Part shown: positions 1-9,524 of the stretch, piece by piece
Position numbering within the stretch: the stretch's first letter is position 1
How the letters are laid out: the number at the start of each line of letters is the position of its first letter
Assembly: GCA_037924335.1 (NCBI GenBank)
Contig: JAXSMZ010000011.1
Location: forward strand, 2,581-40,124
Length of the DNA: 37,544 nt
Reading direction: 5' to 3'
DNA from: Aquificaceae bacterium
GTDB taxonomy: Bacteria > Aquificota > Aquificia > Aquificales > Aquificaceae
Program-made: the position numbers and the translations under genes
Notes under the pieces: generated by a model
The model's input: only the letters and a program-made list of their open reading frames with translations
The model's database searches: none
What the model was told of the DNA's origin: nothing

Positions 1-59
1 ACTTAAAAAACGAGGCTGAACATTGGAGCAGAGAGGCAAGCAAGTTAGGTTTCAAACCC

Positions 60-209
60 TTATAGGAACTTAAAAAACGGCTGTGGGAAAGGTGCTTGTA
101 TGGACTTAGAAGCGAGTAAGGAGTTTATATAGTCATCTGCGTATTCTAAGTCTTCTTCTACAACTGCTATTCTTTCTTTTATGTCCGCAAGCTGTGCGTA
201 GTAAGCCAT
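60..209 (-). pseudogene. 3'-truncated ORF, possibly a phage head-tail adaptor (Mu gp36/DUF1320-like N-terminus)
   Basis: Translated by hand: MAYYAQLADIKERIAVVEEDLEYADDYINSLLASKSIQAPFPQP. It then runs into the repeat and stops at TAA 62-60. The MxY..xD...A..YIxxxL....xP..P pattern resembles phage adaptor proteins. Confidence 0.5.
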
Positions 210-256
210 AAGTGTATTATGTGTCTTTACCTACTACGCTTTTGGAAAGTTTTCTA

Positions 257-574
257 TTAGTAGCACTTAACTTCTCTCAGTTGTGCTTCCAGATTTGTTA
301 CATCCGTGTTGACCGTCCCAATTGCAACAAAATCTCTTCTTTCTCTGTTTGCCACATATCTTAGATGTGCTATTGCGTCTCCAACTGTTTGCCCTGATCT
401 GCGTTTTATGAGAAAGTTGATAAACAAGTCCTTGCATTCCTTCCCGCTGTTGTTTTCTACTCTACCCTTGACATTAACAGAAGAGCCAAAGACGCCCACT
501 GACTCCACTCTTACGTCAAACTGTGCGAAGGCTACGGATACAAGCATAAGGCTTGCGATGGCTATGTTTTTCAT
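257..574 (-). CDS. Secreted small beta-sandwich protein, FxLYD-domain-like
   Basis: Signal peptide ending AFA. Pattern V.G.V.N.S.K...L.INF....G..VG.A...L......R.F. Strong RBS AAGGAGG 7 nt upstream and a double stop TAA TAG. Confidence 0.85.
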   Translation of the reverse strand: MKNIAIASLMLVSVAFAQFDVRVESVGVFGSSVNVKGRVENNSGKECKDLFINFLIKRRSGQTVGDAIAHLRYVANRERRDFVAIGTVNTDVTNLEAQLREVKCY

Positions 575-586
575 GGCGCTACCTCC

Positions 587-1015
587 TTACAAGTTTTTTA
601 ACTCCGCAGGCTTATAAACAGCCACAACCCTGCCTATTATTTTACAATCTGAATAAAGCTCTGGTGCATAGTTAGGGTTATCCGCAAAAGCCCACCACTG
701 CCCGCTTATATGTCTTAGTCTTCTTATCTTTATGCCGTTGTCCCCGCAGGCTATAAGGTAAACCGCATTGTCATATAGCTCTGTGTCTTGTCTATCAATT
801 AGCACGTATTCGTCTTCTCGAACAGTTGGCATCATGCTGTCTCCAACGACCTTAAAAGCCTCCACTTTGTAGTGTTTTAGCCTACTCCTTTCTACAAGCA
901 CATGATCTGGTGTGTATCTTACGCCCGCTCCTGCCTCTGTGATAACTGGTATTGCTACAAGCTCTGTAGGAATTAGCTCCTCTTTGGGAAGAAACATCTC
1001 CCCAGTGCCGTATTT
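587..1015 (-). pseudogene. C-terminal peptidase S24 domain of a CI/LexA-like phage repressor, HTH missing
   Basis: AGAG cleavage site, V.GDSM.P motif, ADNPNY and IIGRVV. The frame is open up to the repeat boundary (KYGTGEMFLP, the usual post-HTH linker) and the repeat supplies an in-frame TGA upstream. Confidence 0.88.
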
Positions 1016-1446
1016 GTTTCAAACCCTTATAGGAACTTAAAAAACTTCCAGTCCGCCCAATCATCATCGGAGACCTGAAGTTTCAAACCCTTATAGGAAC
1101 TTAAAAAACCATTTACCACATCCTCGGGTCTGAAAACCTTCAGCTCGTTTCAAACCCTTATAGGAACTTAAAAAACGTTGTGCTTTATGTGTTTTTACCA
1201 AACAATTCAAGTAGTTTCAAACCCTTATAGGAACTTAAAAAACGAATAGTAGAAAGAAAAATCTTTAGAACGTCTAATAACGTTTCAAACCCTTATAGGA
1301 ACTTAAAAAACCTATTTATGTTTACTCTTGCGAAAACCCTTTCCTCCTGTTTCAAACCCTTATAGGAACTTAAAAAACTTTAAGCTCAATATTGCGATAC
1401 TCATCAAGCATACGCTGTTTCAAACCCTTATAGGAACTTAAAAAAC

Positions 1447-1608
1447 CTACCTTTACGTATTCAGTTGCCAAGAACGCGCTGGGCTTGGTATACCCAGTTT
1501 TTCCTTCACTACACATTATTATAATACAGATTCACCCGGCTAAGCTATTTATCTGTCTACCTAGAATCTTGCAGAAAGCGTGGGGGATCCACAGAAAGTA
1601 AGATAGTC
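1447..1608 (-). promoter_or_regulatory. CRISPR leader
   Basis: Non-coding region between the last repeat and the cas2 stop. Minus-strand TATAAT at 1523-1518. Degenerate TCTGTCTACC...GGATCCACAGA inverted pair resembling I-B leader motifs. Confidence 0.8.
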
Positions 1609-1875
1609 CTATATTATAAAATCCTCATGAGACGGACGTTCTGTCCCAATGCTCTGCCTTTGGTAATACTGCTTGGTTCTAAACTTGTATATGAGGACAG
1701 AGTCGTAATTGAGATCAAGAACATCCTCTAATTCTTTTATGAGCTTGAGAAGTTTAGCTTCAGTTAGTTCACCTTCAAAAACTGAGTTTTGCACCCTAGT
1801 TAGATATTTCCTGCATACCTTTAGTGCCTTTCCAACTCTATCCTCTCTTACATCATAGACAAGTATCACAAACAT
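1609..1875 (-). CDS. cas2: CRISPR-associated endoribonuclease Cas2
   Basis: N-terminal VILVYDV, VQNSVFEG motif, 88 aa. Confidence 0.97.
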   Translation of the reverse strand: MFVILVYDVREDRVGKALKVCRKYLTRVQNSVFEGELTEAKLLKLIKELEDVLDLNYDSVLIYKFRTKQYYQRQSIGTERPSHEDFII

Positions 1876-1885
1876 GACTGTAGCC

Positions 1886-2872
1886 TTACCAATTGCTTAT
1901 GAAAGGTTTGTAAGGTTTCTCATCAAGAAGGTGTTTATAAAGCTTATAACACTCTATTCTTATGACACGTCTATATGAAACTTTCCCTACGTTTTTATAC
2001 CTAATCGTGGTTCTAAGTTTTTCTTCAAAAGCGTTAATAAATATCTCTCTCCCTTTTTGATTCAGATAAGCATAATTTACATCCTGTTCAAAGTGCTTGT
2101 TCTGTATCTGACCTTTATTCACAAGAGAAAATATTATTCTGTCCACTATTATAGGCTTGAAAACCTCTGCTATATCCAGATTAAGGCTAAAACTTCGCTG
2201 ATTGGTTTCGTGTAGGAATCCTATCCTCGGGTCAAGATGAGTTTTATAAATTTCACTTAAGACTACCACGTAAAGAAGTGAGTTGCCAAAGGAAAGCATG
2301 GCATTTATAGGATTCATTGGTGGACGTATGGATCGCTTTTCAAATTTGAAACCTTCTAGAAATAGGTCAAAGGCAGAATAGTAAATCTTTCTTATCTCTC
2401 CCTCTAGTTCCATAAGTGACGGTATTGATTTTTCTTTGTCTATATACTTTATAAGGTTCTCTATAGAGACTATAGCATCTTTTAACTGAGAGGTCTTACT
2501 CCTTCTATAGTAATCAAGGTTGCGAAGTATATTATTAGCCCCTCCATAAACGAAAGATTTTGCTAAGTATAGTCGTTTCTCCATATCTAAGTAGTGTTCA
2601 ACTTGCTTTAGTGTTATAATCCCAGAGTTTGTTACTTCTCTTGGATAAAAACTACCCATATAGAAACCGTAGTAATTGAAAAAATGTAGCGGTATACCGT
2701 GTTGATTGAGAAACTCAAGTGCTCTCTTGTTAAGTTCCAATTCACCAAAGACCATCAATTCGCTGACCGCATTAACGGGTATTGCCCTACTACCACTTGA
2801 AGTTGAGAAAAAGAGAGTGTTATCCTTCCTCTCCAGAGTCCCAGAAGTGAACAAATAAAGGGTTCTTTTCAT
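1886..2872 (-). CDS. cas1: CRISPR-associated endonuclease Cas1, type I-B
   Basis: KDNTL, ELEG..R..YY, NAMLSFGN, GFLHE, LDIAEVFKP motifs. Start placed at the MKRTLY ATG after the cas4 stop. Confidence 0.97.
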   Translation of the reverse strand: MKRTLYLFTSGTLERKDNTLFFSTSSGSRAIPVNAVSELMVFGELELNKRALEFLNQHGIPLHFFNYYGFYMGSFYPREVTNSGIITLKQVEHYLDMEKRLYLAKSFVYGGANNILRNLDYYRRSKTSQLKDAIVSIENLIKYIDKEKSIPSLMELEGEIRKIYYSAFDLFLEGFKFEKRSIRPPMNPINAMLSFGNSLLYVVVLSEIYKTHLDPRIGFLHETNQRSFSLNLDIAEVFKPIIVDRIIFSLVNKGQIQNKHFEQDVNYAYLNQKGREIFINAFEEKLRTTIRYKNVGKVSYRRVIRIECYKLYKHLLDEKPYKPFISNW

Positions 2873-2874
2873 GC

Positions 2875-3357
2875 CTAGCACATTTCCTTGTAGGCACAGT
2901 TTCTGCAGTAGAAAATTTTAACAGGTTCTGGAGGTCTTGAAAGGGATATTATGTGTTCTATTCTTCTGAGTATATTTTCAATTTCTCTCTCGTTTTCAGG
3001 AGTAAGCTCAATATTTATAATTCTTTTCTCCGTTGGTACAAGGATCTGACCGACTGCTACAACACCTTTTTCTTTCTTTAGATAGTAAAGGTAATAAAGT
3101 AGTTGTGCCCTTGCACCATCTAAGTTTTTACTACTAGCTTTTACTTCTGCTACCATTCCCTTGCGTTTGACAACGTCTACCTTAATCACACTATCTATGA
3201 GCATCTCCTTTGTATACCTTTCGTAGAATAGCTCGTGAATTGTTCTACCGTATTCAAGCCTTTCGTGTTCTTGAAAAGGTTCAATAGAGTGACCTATAAG
3301 CCACACCTGCCTTTCGCATATTTGGCTATACCAAATCATAGTTCCGTTTATTACCAT
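2875..3357 (-). CDS. cas4: CRISPR-associated exonuclease Cas4
   Basis: C.RQ.W, G..IHE, D...EVK, QL.YY and C-terminal C..C.Y...C Fe-S ligands. Confidence 0.96.
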   Translation of the reverse strand: MVINGTMIWYSQICERQVWLIGHSIEPFQEHERLEYGRTIHELFYERYTKEMLIDSVIKVDVVKRKGMVAEVKASSKNLDGARAQLLYYLYYLKKEKGVVAVGQILVPTEKRIINIELTPENEREIENILRRIEHIISLSRPPEPVKIFYCRNCAYKEMC

Positions 3358-5561
3358 ATCTGCTCATTAAGTTTTCCAGTGAAACCCACTTCCTCGTTAT
3401 ATAATTCTGAACCCGTAACATATATTTTTAACAGTGGGTCTTTCTGTGTGCCTTCTGGCTTTGCGTTTATCACATAGGAGTAAAAAGTGCCCTTTATAGC
3501 TTCAAATTCTCTTTTTGCCTCAAATATGTTCATTTCCCTGTCTTTTAATCTATCTGCTATGTTTCTTGCTTTTTCCAAAATTTCCCGAGCTTTATCGTCT
3601 ACACATACGAACACACTTTCTTTGTATGGTTCATCGTCTATTAAAGTAAAGTCTCTCATGCTATGGAAATTGCATTTTTGGATATGCTTGAGAAGTTCAT
3701 TACTTTCCTCTTGATAAATTCTTTGTTTGATGTCTGAGAAGTATTTTTCAAGTTCCTGCAAGAGTTGGCTCTCTGTGATTTGAGATTTGTTCTTGAGAAA
3801 ATCTTCCGTTGCAGAAAGGAGTATAATATCATATACACTTCTGGCATACTTTCCGTCGTCAAGTCTTATTACAAACACTTTTCCACCTTGTTGACTTTTG
3901 GCGTTTCTGTTAGCTCTGCCTGCTGTCTGGACTATACTATCAAGAGGTGCAAAGTCTCTTATGACCACATCAAAATCAAGGTCTACACCCGCCTCTATAA
4001 GCTGTGTGGATACAACTATCTTGTGTTTACCATCTGCTATTTCTCTTATCCTATACGCCCTGTGAACTGGAACGAGCATGGTAGAAAGATGAACCACACT
4101 AGGAAAATACTTCTTTAGCTCACTGTAAACTTCTCTTGCGGAGGCTATAGTGTTTAGAACTATCAAGTATCGCTTGTCTTGCTCGTATAAATCTTTAAAA
4201 AAGTTCACAAGTGCGTCAAGGGAGTTCACATCAAACCTCACCTCGAGGTTATATCTGTTGACGGATAATCTGAAGTGGTTTACATCTACAATTTCCCATG
4301 AGCTAGGAGTAAAGTATGGCTGAGTTGCGGTCATATACAAGACTTTACAGCTTAGTTCTTGAGTAAGAACTTCTATAGCCTTTCCTACGAGATCCCAGTA
4401 CCTAACAGGCAGTGCTTGAACTTCATCAAGGATTATGAAAGAGTTTCTTAGTCTATCTAATCTCCTTATGTAAGGGTTCTGCCAGGGGAAAATGGTATGG
4501 AAAAGTTGATAGAAAGTGGTAAGTATTATAGGAGCTCTCCAGCCTTCAACTAAAACTCTGAAAAGGTTATGGTCTTCTTCAGAATTCTCTGTGGGATATT
4601 CGGTAAGATGGTGGTGGACTACAAAGTCCTGACCTATCTTAAGCCCAAGCCTTTCTAAGTTTAAACGAACCTGTTCTATGACACTTAGAAAGGGAAGTGC
4701 ATATATTATCCTCGCAGGTTCGTGCTTAAGAGCAAAAGAAAGACCTGTTAGTGTCTTCCCCATGCCAGTAGGCAAGGTCAAAGTAAAAACTCTCCCTTGT
4801 GCTTCACTTGAGAAAACATGCCTGTATGCCTCATCCCTTAACTGCTTTAAAGGAGACTGTAGGTTCTTTGTGTATTCTTCTATGCTATCTGGAGAGAGCG
4901 GAAGGGGCAATTCTTCCAGAACACCTCTCAAGGCTGCGGAGGATTTGTCTGTATCTAAAAGTAGAGAAAACTCTGAAAGCCTACCCCAGAAGTAACCATC
5001 AGGGAAAGAAACAAAAAGAAATCTCTTTTTCATTCTATCAAATAAAGGTTTTCCAGAATTTTTTACCCACTTGAAGAAGTCATTAAGGTCAAAAAGCAGC
5101 TTCTCTTTTAGTTGATCTTCTATATCAAGGAAATCCACGAAGTGTTTGAATTGTTGATAGTCTATGCTTCTGGCTTTTTTAAGCTCTTTTTCTATCTCTC
5201 CCGAATTGAAAAGTCCATTTATACGATCTATATAGTACAAAAGATAATAGCCATGCCCGTCCCAGAAAAGGTCTGAATGATGTCTTTCTACATAAAAGAA
5301 ACTCCAAAAGCAGTCTTCATCCTTCAACTTAAATCTTTCCTTGCATACATAGAGAGTATAAAATGCTGAAAGAAGAGCGTGGGTTGTACGTTTCCCACCA
5401 TTAAGATAGTCTTGAAATTCCTTTGTTGCCTTTCCCATATCATGAAGAACCATCGCAAGAAGAAGATGGAGTGGGATGTCTTGCTTACTTTTCTTAGCAA
5501 TTCTTAGTATACGGTTTACATGGTCATGCATACATACATCAGGATGAGAATAGATACACAT
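3351..5561 (-). CDS. cas3: CRISPR-associated helicase/nuclease Cas3
   Basis: N-terminal HD domain (LHDMGK, HH), LPTGMGKT Walker A, DEVQ, TAT, TQLIEAGVD and QTAGRANR. Confidence 0.97.
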   Translation of the reverse strand: MCIYSHPDVCMHDHVNRILRIAKKSKQDIPLHLLLAMVLHDMGKATKEFQDYLNGGKRTTHALLSAFYTLYVCKERFKLKDEDCFWSFFYVERHHSDLFWDGHGYYLLYYIDRINGLFNSGEIEKELKKARSIDYQQFKHFVDFLDIEDQLKEKLLFDLNDFFKWVKNSGKPLFDRMKKRFLFVSFPDGYFWGRLSEFSLLLDTDKSSAALRGVLEELPLPLSPDSIEEYTKNLQSPLKQLRDEAYRHVFSSEAQGRVFTLTLPTGMGKTLTGLSFALKHEPARIIYALPFLSVIEQVRLNLERLGLKIGQDFVVHHHLTEYPTENSEEDHNLFRVLVEGWRAPIILTTFYQLFHTIFPWQNPYIRRLDRLRNSFIILDEVQALPVRYWDLVGKAIEVLTQELSCKVLYMTATQPYFTPSSWEIVDVNHFRLSVNRYNLEVRFDVNSLDALVNFFKDLYEQDKRYLIVLNTIASAREVYSELKKYFPSVVHLSTMLVPVHRAYRIREIADGKHKIVVSTQLIEAGVDLDFDVVIRDFAPLDSIVQTAGRANRNAKSQQGGKVFVIRLDDGKYARSVYDIILLSATEDFLKNKSQITESQLLQELEKYFSDIKQRIYQEESNELLKHIQKCNFHSMRDFTLIDDEPYKESVFVCVDDKAREILEKARNIADRLKDREMNIFEAKREFEAIKGTFYSYVINAKPEGTQKDPLLKIYVTGSELYNEEVGFTGKLNEQIW

Positions 5562-6213
5562 AGTCTACTCCTACCTTATATATGTTTATAAACTCACCAC
5601 TTAAAGGGTTATCTTTCGTTGTGTAGAAAATATCTATATAGCTGGGGCTTTTTCTGCCTTCCTGAAAGCTAATTGGTATTCTATCTTTGAAAACTGGTCT
5701 TTGCTTTAAGACTTCTATTAGATTAGAGGTGCAATCAGGAGGGAAAACTCCATAGATACAGTCTGATTTTCCCACAAATACAGCTTGTTGAAACCCGATA
5801 GGTTCAAGTCGGGCAGGGTAGGAGGTTTTTCCAAGGTATGGATGGTAATGGCTTTTGCCTTCCTGAACCATATCAGCAAATGTCTCAAACAGATCACCTT
5901 GACCACATAGGTGTATTCTGTAAGAGGGATTAATGAGAACTTGTCTGTTTGCTTGTGTGCGGACGAGTTTTTTAGGGTCTTTAATATTTAGAAGGTTTAA
6001 GCCTAAAAACATCTTTCCTTCCACCCTCTCTATCACGATACCTATATTAAATTCGCTTGTAGTCTTTATGTAATCCTCACAGCCTACTACAGCGGCGATA
6101 AGCCCCCTTATAGTTGTCGGTGGTGGAAAATCATAACTTAGGGCGGACGCAGTTGTGTAAAACTTTCTAAAGTGTCCAAGCCTTCCACTAAGCCTAAAAG
6201 AAAAGCACTTCAT
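5539..6213 (-). CDS. cas5: Cas5, type I-B
   Basis: GHFRK, SY.FPPPTT.RG, PYLG motifs and operon position. Confidence 0.95.
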   Translation of the reverse strand: MKCFSFRLSGRLGHFRKFYTTASALSYDFPPPTTIRGLIAAVVGCEDYIKTTSEFNIGIVIERVEGKMFLGLNLLNIKDPKKLVRTQANRQVLINPSYRIHLCGQGDLFETFADMVQEGKSHYHPYLGKTSYPARLEPIGFQQAVFVGKSDCIYGVFPPDCTSNLIEVLKQRPVFKDRIPISFQEGRKSPSYIDIFYTTKDNPLSGEFINIYKVGVDYVYLFSS

Positions 6214-7184
6214 TTTGTCAGATTAAACTTCTCAAGGGGCAAACCTTGAAAAGTATTCTCTAAAGGCTCTGATAGTCGTAACATAGGGTCAATCTGATAT
6301 ATCACCTTCTGTATATCTCTCTTAACCCCTTCAAGCTTATTTTTCATTGCAGAAAGGTCAAGGATAAACTCAGAAACATTCCTTATAGCTTTTTCCTCAA
6401 GCCCTTCGTCAGGAATGAGTTTAATGAAACTTATAAGGTCCCCAAGAGAGTATAGAGTGTTTTCTTGAAAAACAATGTCAATCAGAAGTTTAGGTGAATG
6501 TCCAAGCTTACTGGTGGTTTCAATAGTACTTGCACTCATATGCCCATACCACAAGGCTTTAAAGAAAAGTTCTATATCCTTTTCACTTAAGCCAGTTTTC
6601 GTTGCATTCTTGTCATTCACTACCCCATAAGTCCCTATGAAAGCGTAAGGCACTTTGTATTCTTCTGTGAAAGTCCCCACAGTCTTGCCTTCACCAGATG
6701 GCATCTCAGTAGTCCCTTTGATAAAAACCACATCCACTTTATGAAGAGACTCTCCCCATGCAATCTGCACAGGTCCCACAAAAGAAAAGGCTTTTTGTTC
6801 TTCTTTTGACTCTTCTGTATTCCCTGAACCTTTCTTCTTCTCTTTACCTCCCACCGCAAAGACACCACCAAAAAGTCGTATGTCCACGTACTTTTCCAAC
6901 ACGTACTTTTCCAACGGCATTTTAGGATCACCAATTTCTTTGCCAATTTCTTTTAACTTCTCATCCTTGGTTTTGAGGGTGCCATCTTCGTTTTGTTCTG
7001 CCTTTATGAATACTTGATGACCAAACTGCTCTAAGGCATCCCTCACCGTCCTCTTTATCCTATCGTCGGACACAAGAATTCTCTCTCTTATCTTATCTTG
7101 TCTTGGTTGGTTGTCCGCTAAAGGGTCTCCATTAGGATTTGCCCACCTAACATCGTAAAAAAAGAAAAATTCATGTCTCTTCAT
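6210..7184 (-). CDS. cas7: Cas7/Csh2, type I-B
   Basis: ANPNGDP..DN.PR, DIRLFG and GPVQ motifs. GGAGG upstream of ATG 7184. Confidence 0.96.
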   Translation of the reverse strand: MKRHEFFFFYDVRWANPNGDPLADNQPRQDKIRERILVSDDRIKRTVRDALEQFGHQVFIKAEQNEDGTLKTKDEKLKEIGKEIGDPKMPLEKYVLEKYVDIRLFGGVFAVGGKEKKKGSGNTEESKEEQKAFSFVGPVQIAWGESLHKVDVVFIKGTTEMPSGEGKTVGTFTEEYKVPYAFIGTYGVVNDKNATKTGLSEKDIELFFKALWYGHMSASTIETTSKLGHSPKLLIDIVFQENTLYSLGDLISFIKLIPDEGLEEKAIRNVSEFILDLSAMKNKLEGVKRDIQKVIYQIDPMLRLSEPLENTFQGLPLEKFNLTK

Positions 7185-7572
7185 CTTGCTCACCTCCAGA
7201 CTTAAGATTCTTACCTATTCCATAGCCGACACAAAGGGCAGTGTTTATGTCATCTCTCTTTTTCCCTCTACCCTCAAACCCCAGTCTTTTTATAGCCTTA
7301 GCATACAGGGTATAGAATTTTTCACCAAGATTGTATTTAGTAGCCTTGTTCATTAGCTCTCTCATTAACTCTTCTACCCCACGCCAATCAAGGCTAAACT
7401 CCCTAAAAAGAAGGTAAAGGTTGGGTGTGTATCCTTTTGCGTATTGAACCTTTTCCACATAAGCGACAAGAAAGCCCAAAAGGGCAAGTCCTACAAGAAC
7501 TTCGTCCTCTTTAAAGTATTTTCTAAAAAAGTCCTCAGGATTTTCTTCTTCTAACTTGTTAAACTCTGCCAT
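7171..7572 (-). CDS. cas11: Putative Cas11 small subunit translated from an internal start in cas8b (133 aa)
   Basis: In-frame ATG at 7572 preceded by GGAGG at 8-nt spacing. Helical C-terminal region. Confidence 0.65.
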   Translation of the reverse strand: MAEFNKLEEENPEDFFRKYFKEDEVLVGLALLGFLVAYVEKVQYAKGYTPNLYLLFREFSLDWRGVEELMRELMNKATKYNLGEKFYTLYAKAIKRLGFEGRGKKRDDINTALCVGYGIGKNLKSGGEQDEET

Positions 7573-8799
7573 GTTCTTTCCCTCCATAGCTTTTTTTATG
7601 AAAAGATATGAAACAACAAAATCATAGCATAAATATTTAAGATTATTGTTCTGGATTTTTCTAAACCCAGAAAGCAATATGCCTGATGGTTCTACTTTTT
7701 CCCCAAGAAAACTTGCCCTCAAGAGAGCAAAAAAACTATCTCTATCTGGTGTTAGTCTCCGTATGGTTTTGTATGAAAACTTTTCCCCAAGCGTGAATTT
7801 CTCTTCTATTTCTCTTTTCAGTTTATAAAGATAACCAAGTCTTGATGGAAATATGTCTTCAATTGAGTGAAGTATTCTTATAGCATTTTGATTTCTCTCT
7901 AAATAAAGAAGCAATACACGAAGATCATCCTCAATCCCAGATTTTTCTCTAATATATTCATTAATGTCTTCAGGATCTATATTCCCAGCTCCTAAATATG
8001 ACTTTCTTGATGTATCGTCTTTGAGAACTTCCACCAGCTCTTCTATCTTCTGCACGTTCCCTTCTGGAATAAAAAGATATTCAAAGCCCGCCATGCTGAA
8101 TTTAAACCATAGACCTGCAGCCTCAACTCCTTTCTTAACAGTTTCAAGGCAATCTGCACATGCAGGCATATGTCTGTAAGCAAGCCCTTTATCAATGTAA
8201 GGAGCATAAGCAGGGTTGTCAACCGTATAAACAGTAATGGGGAAATAATCTCCTATTACTTTCTTTTTTTGAAAGCATAGAGAACATATTCCTTCTCCTC
8301 CTTTTCTTTCTTTCTCATACCACCTTCTGATAAGATTTTCTACCTTTTCCACTACCTCTTGTATCTCACCCAAATATTTATCGTCTATTTTTATAGTAAT
8401 CAAAATCTGGTGTGCTTTATTTAAGTCTTTTACCTTCATCTTTAGGTCCTCTTTGATTTCGTCCATACTACCCTCAAGGGGCTTTCCAAACAACTGCTCT
8501 GCTGATGAGAATAGCCATTCTAGTGTTTTAGGTTTCTTCTCAGATAGCTCCTTTTTTAGCTTATCCTTTGCTTTAACTATGGTAGGCGTAAAGCCAGGGG
8601 TATTCTTTGAATTCCCCCTTTTCGCATATAGGTATTTCCATTGTTCCTCATTTTTGAAATCTTCCAGCCTAAGATCTATATAGTTTAGGTTCTTGCCGAA
8701 ACGTAAAGTAAAAACTATATCAATACCACTTAATAAGTCCCTTGCTCTTAAACCCTTATTCTCAGCTACTTTTCCAAGATCTAGAAAAGCCCTCAACAT
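7171..8799 (-). CDS. cas8b: Cas8b/Csh1 large subunit (TM1802-like)
   Basis: Two CxxC pairs (CSLC, CADC), I.DIFPSR motif, position between cas6 and cas7. Confidence 0.9.
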   Translation of the reverse strand: MLRAFLDLGKVAENKGLRARDLLSGIDIVFTLRFGKNLNYIDLRLEDFKNEEQWKYLYAKRGNSKNTPGFTPTIVKAKDKLKKELSEKKPKTLEWLFSSAEQLFGKPLEGSMDEIKEDLKMKVKDLNKAHQILITIKIDDKYLGEIQEVVEKVENLIRRWYEKERKGGEGICSLCFQKKKVIGDYFPITVYTVDNPAYAPYIDKGLAYRHMPACADCLETVKKGVEAAGLWFKFSMAGFEYLFIPEGNVQKIEELVEVLKDDTSRKSYLGAGNIDPEDINEYIREKSGIEDDLRVLLLYLERNQNAIRILHSIEDIFPSRLGYLYKLKREIEEKFTLGEKFSYKTIRRLTPDRDSFFALLRASFLGEKVEPSGILLSGFRKIQNNNLKYLCYDFVVSYLFIKKAMEGKNMAEFNKLEEENPEDFFRKYFKEDEVLVGLALLGFLVAYVEKVQYAKGYTPNLYLLFREFSLDWRGVEELMRELMNKATKYNLGEKFYTLYAKAIKRLGFEGRGKKRDDINTALCVGYGIGKNLKSGGEQDEET

Positions 8800-9524
8800 G
8801 GTTCAACCATCCCAAAGCCTGCACTGTTTTTTACACCAAGTCCTGCGTAAAGAGCTATGCACATCATGTCCTCCCCTGTTCTTATATTATACGTTCCCTC
8901 CCAGGCTTCTACAAGTGTTCCCTTAAAAACAACCTTCTTTCTGTAGCTATTTTCTATCTTGACAGGACTTATCTCTATCCCACCCTCATACTTTTTTCCA
9001 TACACTAGGTGATATTTCTTCAAAAGGTTGGACTTAAGGAGCTTATAAAAATCCTCTTGATAGGGTGTGAAGTATTCAAACCTTTTACTGCCAGCTGGAG
9101 TCCTGTAAACAGTTATAGGAGATAGACATCGCACAGAGACCTCTTTTTGAGGATTGTATTCTCTTGCGTGTATTTGCGAGAGGAAAACGTAGTTACTTCC
9201 AAGCTTTAGGCTCTGTTTTTTTAGAACTTCCTTTAATAAACTCTCGGTGAGTTTAAGAAAGGGGGAGGCAAAATGTATAACAAGAGGTGGTATAAGCTTT
9301 AAAATATCGCCCCTTTTTTCTAGTGAACTGTATCCAATTTTTGAGAAGGTAAAAAGCTTAAATTTCCTTCCTTCATATATGAATCCAGACTGGTGCAGAA
9401 ATTCTGAGAGAAGCCTGTCTATGTTCGCATAGAAAAACCCTTGAAGCACATGATTGTATGACTTTGGAAGAATAACCGGTCTGTCAGAGTCCAAAGTCAA
9501 CGTAAGAACTGCTCCCTTTCTCAT
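8793..9524 (-). CDS. cas6: CRISPR-associated endoribonuclease Cas6
   Basis: FKLFTFS, LSPI and C-terminal G-rich loop GLGVKNSAGFG. Confidence 0.97.
   Translation of the reverse strand: MRKGAVLTLTLDSDRPVILPKSYNHVLQGFFYANIDRLLSEFLHQSGFIYEGRKFKLFTFSKIGYSSLEKRGDILKLIPPLVIHFASPFLKLTESLLKEVLKKQSLKLGSNYVFLSQIHAREYNPQKEVSVRCLSPITVYRTPAGSKRFEYFTPYQEDFYKLLKSNLLKKYHLVYGKKYEGGIEISPVKIENSYRKKVVFKGTLVEAWEGTYNIRTGEDMMCIALYAGLGVKNSAGFGMVEPC

Follow-up and report, generated by a model that had tools for sequence, protein, structure and literature searches.

The window (the whole stretch of 37,544 nucleotides that was analysed) carries a CRISPR array and, adjoining it on the minus strand, a complete type I-B operon identified by profile matches. 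The operon extends over positions 1609 to 9524 with cas6-cas8b-cas7-cas5-cas3-cas4-cas1-cas2, all of which are open. The matches of cas1_HMARI, Csh2 and Cas5h were above their cut-offs and place the system in type I-B; the large subunit matched Pfam TM1802 above the cut-off and NCBIfam TIGR02556/Csh1 below theirs. Cas4 aligned with its relatives over the full length, and Cas6 carries a glycine loop that we take to be the one typical of Cas6 proteins. The array, also on the minus strand, contains eight exact 30-nt repeats across positions 49 to 1446. Seven spacers in the window are 34 to 38 nt long, and one is 937 nt (79 to 1015); the length reference, 187 related spacers in the 30-46 bin, ranged from 34 to 43 nt, and the 937-nt insert lies far outside this range. 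It is nevertheless bounded by whole, exact repeats at 49 to 78 (trailer side) and 1016 to 1045. Seven exact repeats and six normal spacers (34-38 nt) occupy positions 1016 to 1446, and a normal 37-nt spacer with a partial repeat occupies positions 1 to 48. Left of the window, the contig continues with an N gap, followed by another oversize insert and by a terminal repeat that carries a single mismatch. The names attached to relatives of the repressor described below place the host in the Aquificaceae.

The 162 nt between the array and cas2 (1447 to 1608, minus strand) form a leader region with a TATAAT at 1523-1518 and no clear -35 element. The repeat ending in GAAAC, this gap with its TATAAT, the degenerate terminal repeat at the far end, and the PAM-like triplets 5' of the minus-strand protospacers suggest that the array is transcribed on the minus strand. 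Two results count weakly against this direction: Rfam CRISPR-DR2 matched the array on the plus strand, under its gathering score, and the promoter scan gave no minus-strand promoter in the leader. No terminator-like site was found in positions 1 to 1900. With this direction the 937-nt insert lies near the old (trailer) end of the array and is transcribed in sense. The exact repeat was not found in the genome or viral contigs searched, and an 18-nt spacer scan returned three partial matches, which were not protospacers. The leader-side spacer at 1110-1146 matched, with two mismatches, a prophage of the same phage family as the insert.

The insert contains three coding parts on the minus strand. 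The 3' part of a cI repressor gene (587 to 1015) encodes the linker and the S24 domain, and its HTH half is missing. A complete gene of 105 aa follows (257 to 574), with a hydrophobic leader, an FxLYD domain and the residues Cys47 and Cys104. The last part is the beginning of a Mu gp36 gene (PF07030; 79 to 209), cut by the repeat after 43 of 112 codons. The sequence-only reading had described the 105-aa gene as the only complete gene in the insert, with AAGGAGG 7 nt before its ATG, two Cys, a double stop and the sense of leader-driven transcription, and these points were confirmed, the last within the direction proposed above. The AAGGAGG (588-582) shares bases with the TAA stop of cI; the 105-aa gene itself ends in TAA TAG, with the second stop at 256-254. 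Of the signal peptide that had also been claimed, hydropathy supports the N-terminal hydrophobic stretch; the cleavage between AFA and Q is presumed from general signal-peptide rules. The guess of an FxLYD fold agreed with a match to NCBIfam FxLYD_dom (NF038353), at 31.2 bits against a cut-off of 23 over residues 32-93 (about 481-296). An FxLYD domain would be expected to fold as a beta-sandwich. The duplex of the AAGGAGG with an assumed anti-SD motif was calculated at -13.4 kcal/mol, compared with -7.2 for the S24 ATG, -2.8 for the tail ORF and -3.7 for cas2, and this ribosome site is independent of upstream translation.

The FxLYD_dom match and the existence of two variants of the protein, with 3 and 6 mostly conservative changes, put the 105-aa ORF above chance. 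No close homologues were found beyond these two variants, and no other match to NF038353 above the cut-off was found in the 177 other genomes of the phylum. The searches of 5.8 billion and 1.84 billion proteins returned the protein itself only, and those of IMG/VR, GenBank phages, plasmids and Pfam returned no homologue. The best E value against solved structures was 0.07. PADLOC gave no match and PHROG none better than E 0.013. The structure models were of low confidence (pLDDT 57 and 53), with an uninformative best fold match of Z 5.2, and the Atlas neighbours with an assigned family scored 0.85 or less. The literature search gave no FxLYD protein with a described function.

Judged from its sequence, the insert is DNA of a Mu-like temperate phage, comprising the 3' part of cI, the complete FxLYD gene and the 5' part of gp36. 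A related context is locus L003, the immunity region of a temperate phage with cI, cro, cII-like, RecT-like and ParB-like genes; it shows 88% identity to the insert over the stretch between the insert's first base and the start codon of the cargo gene. The cI gene of L003 is complete and ends in the same combination of stop and ribosome site, after which another membrane protein is encoded. Prophages of this phage family in G017, G106:C4 and L189 have a Mu-type transposase, head and tail genes, and again other membrane cargo after cI. The same AAGGAGG context precedes other cargo genes in L003 and G106:C56. Since relatives carry different genes after cI, the 105-aa gene is read as one allele of a variable envelope-cargo slot, and all six cargo proteins examined have a signal-like or membrane segment by hydropathy. 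The earlier proposals of an origin directly downstream of a temperate-phage repressor and of envelope-type proteins in that place thus held, the former through the cI-cargo order of L003. The gene occupies the repressor operon of a temperate phage, as superinfection-exclusion genes often do. The phage gene order cI-FxLYD-gp36 is presumed from FxLYD variants and gp36 variants, which occur on Logan contigs of matching lengths (1,187 and 9,078 nt). The insert DNA itself was found neither in phages nor in 60 relatives (a set without G106).

Two further observations concern this phage family. A head and capsid segment at G000:C21:1-2350, in the same genome as the window, is 93% identical to the G017 prophage over 1,679 nt; it begins mid-gene beside a host transporter and runs off the contig, and may be read as a remnant or an unassembled prophage. 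An ordinary 36-nt spacer of another array type, seen in sequencing run X2, matches the cI fragment at window positions 705-740 with one mismatch, so that the insert could itself be a target of that system.

The insert was also compared with four hot-spring sequencing runs over window positions 1-1700. Runs X1, X2 and X3 come from a single study, X5 from a different one, and the source sample may be among them. The left junction and position 116 lie inside two unbroken records, 50-662 (X1) and 49-662 (X3); these contain 29 and 30 repeat letters, which is just under the 31-letter rule. The right junction is bridged by record 494-1046 (X2) with 31 repeat letters. The junction records in X1, X2 and X3 contain 0 other letters. 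Across X1, X2 and X3 the depth of the insert stayed close to that of the cas2 flank (17.3 vs 19.7, 6.8 vs 5.9 and 2.2-5.8 vs 5.8); X5 gave inner pieces only, at 3.5-4.5 vs 8.65, and record depth does not equal the share of cells. A phage relative 93% identical to the insert is present beside the host in X1 and X3 at 70-94x, and it has yet another sequence beyond the cI stop, which is also seen after cI in X5.

These records make an assembly artefact behind the 937-nt insert unlikely. An assembly path from a spacer into a phage contig and back via a second spacer would be expected to give a distal PAM, which is described below; no record spanning the entire insert was among those listed in the four runs, and the left-junction records stay under the 31-letter rule. 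Such a chimera is very improbable, since both junctions are present in records with 0 other letters at host-like depth; the abundant phage relative shows about 7% divergence, and its sequence after cI is a different one. A 937-nt piece of phage DNA with the variable cargo slot after cI is thus written into the array as one oversize spacer.

A second case was found with the tail ORF as the query in 178 genomes of the phylum. In the assembly of G106:C56, of another genus, an insert of 1,323 nt is flanked by repeats of another type; it occupies the second place from the trailer end and has the same sense. Its contents are the 3' portion of the same repressor gene (cI; 95% identity across 234 nt), a complete cargo gene for a membrane-anchored protein of 199 aa with AAGGAGG (-12.1 kcal/mol), and a complete gp36. 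A Logan variant of the G106 cargo protein exists. By sequence comparison, the same cargo slot of the phage was captured twice independently, in different genera and next to different repeat types, which adds support that the sequence-only reading could not have had. The discovery was biased, because the insert's own ORF served as the query. Counter-searches were made with L003 in 178 genomes and with about 29.6 kb of the G017 prophage in 90 genomes, with 2-3 candidates per genome scored; no further kilobase insert between repeats was found among the loci returned.

The scan of the arrays for long gaps found 20, of which 12 have degenerate repeats and two match the phage, both in the window's array; the scan is not exhaustive and missed the G106 insert. 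The second phage match is the oversize insert left of the window, at G000:C11:2425-2570 (L001:1267-1412), which is at least 146 nt long and cut by the N gap. This insert consists of the tail end of an RHH-like gene with 74% identity to the G017 prophage, and it is not cargo. Two of the three oversize phage inserts seen, including both kilobase ones, therefore cover the cargo slot. No report of a natural kilobase spacer with an intact phage gene was found in the literature, although subscription papers and supplements may hold one; the accessible part of 10.64898/2026.05.08.723854 contained nothing of relevance.

Several other arrangements were observed in the survey. In the complete genome G026 (C1:1306671-1307614; L398:2172-3114), a conserved CRISPR leader is followed by a repeat, a 20-nt spacer, a degenerate repeat, a gene and a repeat. 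This gene encodes a whole 255-aa secreted protein that ends in Phe, is outer-membrane-like by eye and has no Pfam match; it has its own ribosome site and a hairpin, and its DNA was not found in five genus relatives. At G000:C11:1595-2424 (L001:434-1266) lies an additional copy of a gene that we take to be ygfZ-like, in which roughly the first 30 codons have given way to the terminal repeat. This copy is only 55% identical to the genome's other copy on C7, and the junction is also present in X1 and X5. An 871-nt gap between repeats at L090:9085-9955 (G041:C92) contains a pair of overlapping genes in antisense, for 75 and 185 aa, which look toxin-antitoxin-like by eye and have no Pfam match; the repeats may belong to two separate arrays. 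Related type I-B arrays have gaps of 253, 253 and 654 nt (L079:15368-15620, L081 near 3582 and L062 near 283), which gave no match to the insert's phage family. In one array that is otherwise regular (L091:7330-9200; G166), an extended series of repeats contains indels, possibly from sequencing error or decay.

The start of the insert resembles that of an ordinary spacer. CTA lies directly upstream of it in three relatives (L003 and those in X1 and X3), on the 5' side of the protospacer. The normal spacers have the PAM-like triplets TTG, CTT and TTA, with one miss (ACA, with CTA 3 nt further). CTA fits the YYD given for T. maritima I-B1 in the available text of PMC13199841, and PMC10551041, in its available part, lists TTA, CTA and TTG for P. 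thermoglucosidasius, with CTA weakly active. The G106 insert is preceded by CCA in relatives, and CCN was found at four of the seven matched spacers of a closely similar repeat family. A triplet was also found about one spacer length from the far ends. In the window, the distal 38 nt (116-79) are preceded by TTA (119-117), and this segment (79 to 119, minus strand) might be a former ordinary spacer; such a triplet would occur at 18% of end positions by chance, or 33% under YYD. The far end of the G106 insert has CCN at 35-37 nt, with a chance of 11%, or 22% under YCN. This test is post hoc and covers n=2 kilobase inserts. The 146-nt insert has, by eye, no YT(A/G) triplet 36-38 nt from its far end.

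The distal PAMs are expected if phage DNA bridged two ordinary spacers, and are not expected if one long fragment was integrated. In the former route, two ordinary same-strand spacers from the phage would have served as homology arms, and a phage RecT/Bet-like protein would have exchanged the repeat separating them for the phage DNA in between. The phage family has RecT/Bet-like genes, and the accessible part of 10.1101/2020.10.09.333658 states that phage recombinases recombine spacers with phage genomes. No joint or loose end of the ancestral array with the two predicted spacers was among the records listed for the four runs. The other route would be over-long Cas1-Cas2 integration after PAM processing at one end. 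We put recombinational fill-in against over-long integration at about 55:45. A defective Cas4 as the cause of the oversize spacer was discarded, because Cas4 is of full length and the seven other spacers in the window are normal.

The insert might also be left over from a prophage that entered a repeat by integration or transposition and was subsequently lost through deletion. A transposase of the Mu type occurs in the phage family, the same genome holds another fragment of the family (the C21 segment above), and prophage integration into CRISPR repeats is described in the available text of 10.1101/2020.10.09.333658, as for S. pyogenes phage AP1.1. This origin is scarcely credible here, as the flanking repeats are exact and whole, and the junctions cut within cI and gp36 rather than at phage ends or att sites; neither a split repeat (attL/attR) nor phage ends were found at the junctions. 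A prophage remnant and an artefact, even taken together, have a very small probability.

The reading that we prefer, with a probability of roughly 0.55, is that a real phage capture was inherited at the old end of the array and that its gene is a tolerated passenger. Spacers at the trailer end persist without selection. The cargo (2 of 105, with two comparators) and the dead flanks (3 of 142 and 1 of 43) have similar rates of private amino-acid changes, within the range of live phage proteins (0-5), and no extra constraint on the cargo is apparent. The intactness of the ORF does not argue for selection, because the dead fragments of cI and gp36 are just as open. The same array also has the second, non-cargo oversize insert of the same phage family. 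Genes of the lysogeny module would be harmless to the host, so that inserts carrying them may survive, and fill-ins with lytic genes would be purged. Against a passenger stands that both kilobase inserts span the whole cargo slot in sense; the rough chance of this for the second is 1-2%, assuming uniform capture from about 32 kb. Protein-based immunity stored in the array would explain why the same slot was kept twice, and it is possible, if doubtful, that the gene was captured under selection, with the array transcript expressing an envelope protein that blocks adsorption or DNA entry of related phages. The 937- and 1,323-nt inserts each carry a complete and different cargo gene with AAGGAGG, in sense and without an intact cI, and the signal-like or membrane segments of six of six cargo proteins would suit such a role; Ltp, a superinfection-exclusion lipoprotein, also sits downstream of a repressor, within the lysogeny module, as the available part of PMC3952083 describes. 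The insert depth is like that of the cas2 flank in X1, X2 and X3, and the G026 array has a whole secreted-protein gene between repeats behind a conserved leader. However, the absence of a described FxLYD function and of PADLOC or better PHROG matches in the searches above, as well as the fact that no extra constraint is apparent, speak against selection; moreover, G106 was found with the insert's own ORF, and survivor bias also explains the convergence. The leader-side spacer still targets the same phage family, and the 93%-identical relative is abundant beside the host, so any protection would be partial.

The 105-aa gene brought along a ribosome site of its own and is probably transcribed as part of the pre-crRNA; its orientation, the strong ribosome site and the lack of a terminator-like site make some translation plausible, and some 105-aa protein may be made. 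The RNA of about 967 nt that Cas6 had been predicted to release is right in its arithmetic (8+937+22). A stable guide-plus-mRNA of this length is uncertain, because a fraction of the Haloferax I-B crRNAs, which have 8- and 22-nt handles, is 3'-trimmed according to the available text of PMC6546412. The insert might then have been kept as a guide, with Cascade on the 8-nt handle and the first ~37 nt, the 3' remainder trimmed and the ORF effectively silent. These ~37 nt target the conserved cI linker next to CTA, a triplet compatible with the published PAMs cited above. Haloferax I-B can do without the 3' handle, and 3' ends that are exposed may be trimmed there (PMC6546412, available part). In the X3 relative the first 35 nt are identical and CTA is preserved; whereas in the X1 relative two of the first four positions are mismatched, the pattern expected of an escape variant. 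Retention as a guide is improbable, as it gives no account of why both inserts span the cargo gene, and the perfectly matching variant is abundant in X3 (depth 70). A more general proposal, that hot-spring Aquificaceae arrays repeatedly capture the cargo slot via two spacer arms and express the envelope gene as an integron-cassette-like exclusion system, is rather unlikely.

CRISPR memory is usually taken as a fixed-length guide sequence. Two independent captures in different genera and repeat types show that arrays can take up whole phage genes together with their ribosome sites. If such genes are expressed and protective, they would be a second kind of heritable immunity stored in the array. 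If they are passive, they point to a route for kilobase spacers, namely spacer-templated recombination by phage annealing proteins. The cases are also a warning that array callers split arrays with such oversize inserts.

Comparison of the locus with known systems showed similarities in part. As in canonical type I-B acquisition by Cas1-Cas2-Cas4, the repeats are exact, a PAM-like triplet lies 5' of the proximal end and the adaptation genes are intact; whereas the insert, at 937 nt, far exceeds 34-38 nt, contains an entire gene and has a PAM also one spacer length from the far end. The normal spacer size is 36-38 bp in the available text of PMC5737086. The accessible descriptions of Ltp of S. 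thermophilus TP-J34 also concern a small envelope protein in a variable slot downstream of the repressor; no sequence similarity to the 105-aa protein was found, and the latter has an FxLYD domain, no lipobox seen and a location in a host array. Spacer-phage recombination (Varble et al. 2019, as cited in the accessible part of 10.1101/2020.10.09.333658) shares the spacer homology, and the phage here encodes a RecT/Bet-like protein; the outcome described there is CRISPR loci transduced by phage, whereas here phage DNA would enter the array between spacers. S. pyogenes phage AP1.1, as far as the same source describes it, likewise places temperate-phage genes inside an array; it is a whole prophage that splits a repeat into attL and attR, whereas the insert reported here is an internal phage fragment between whole repeats.
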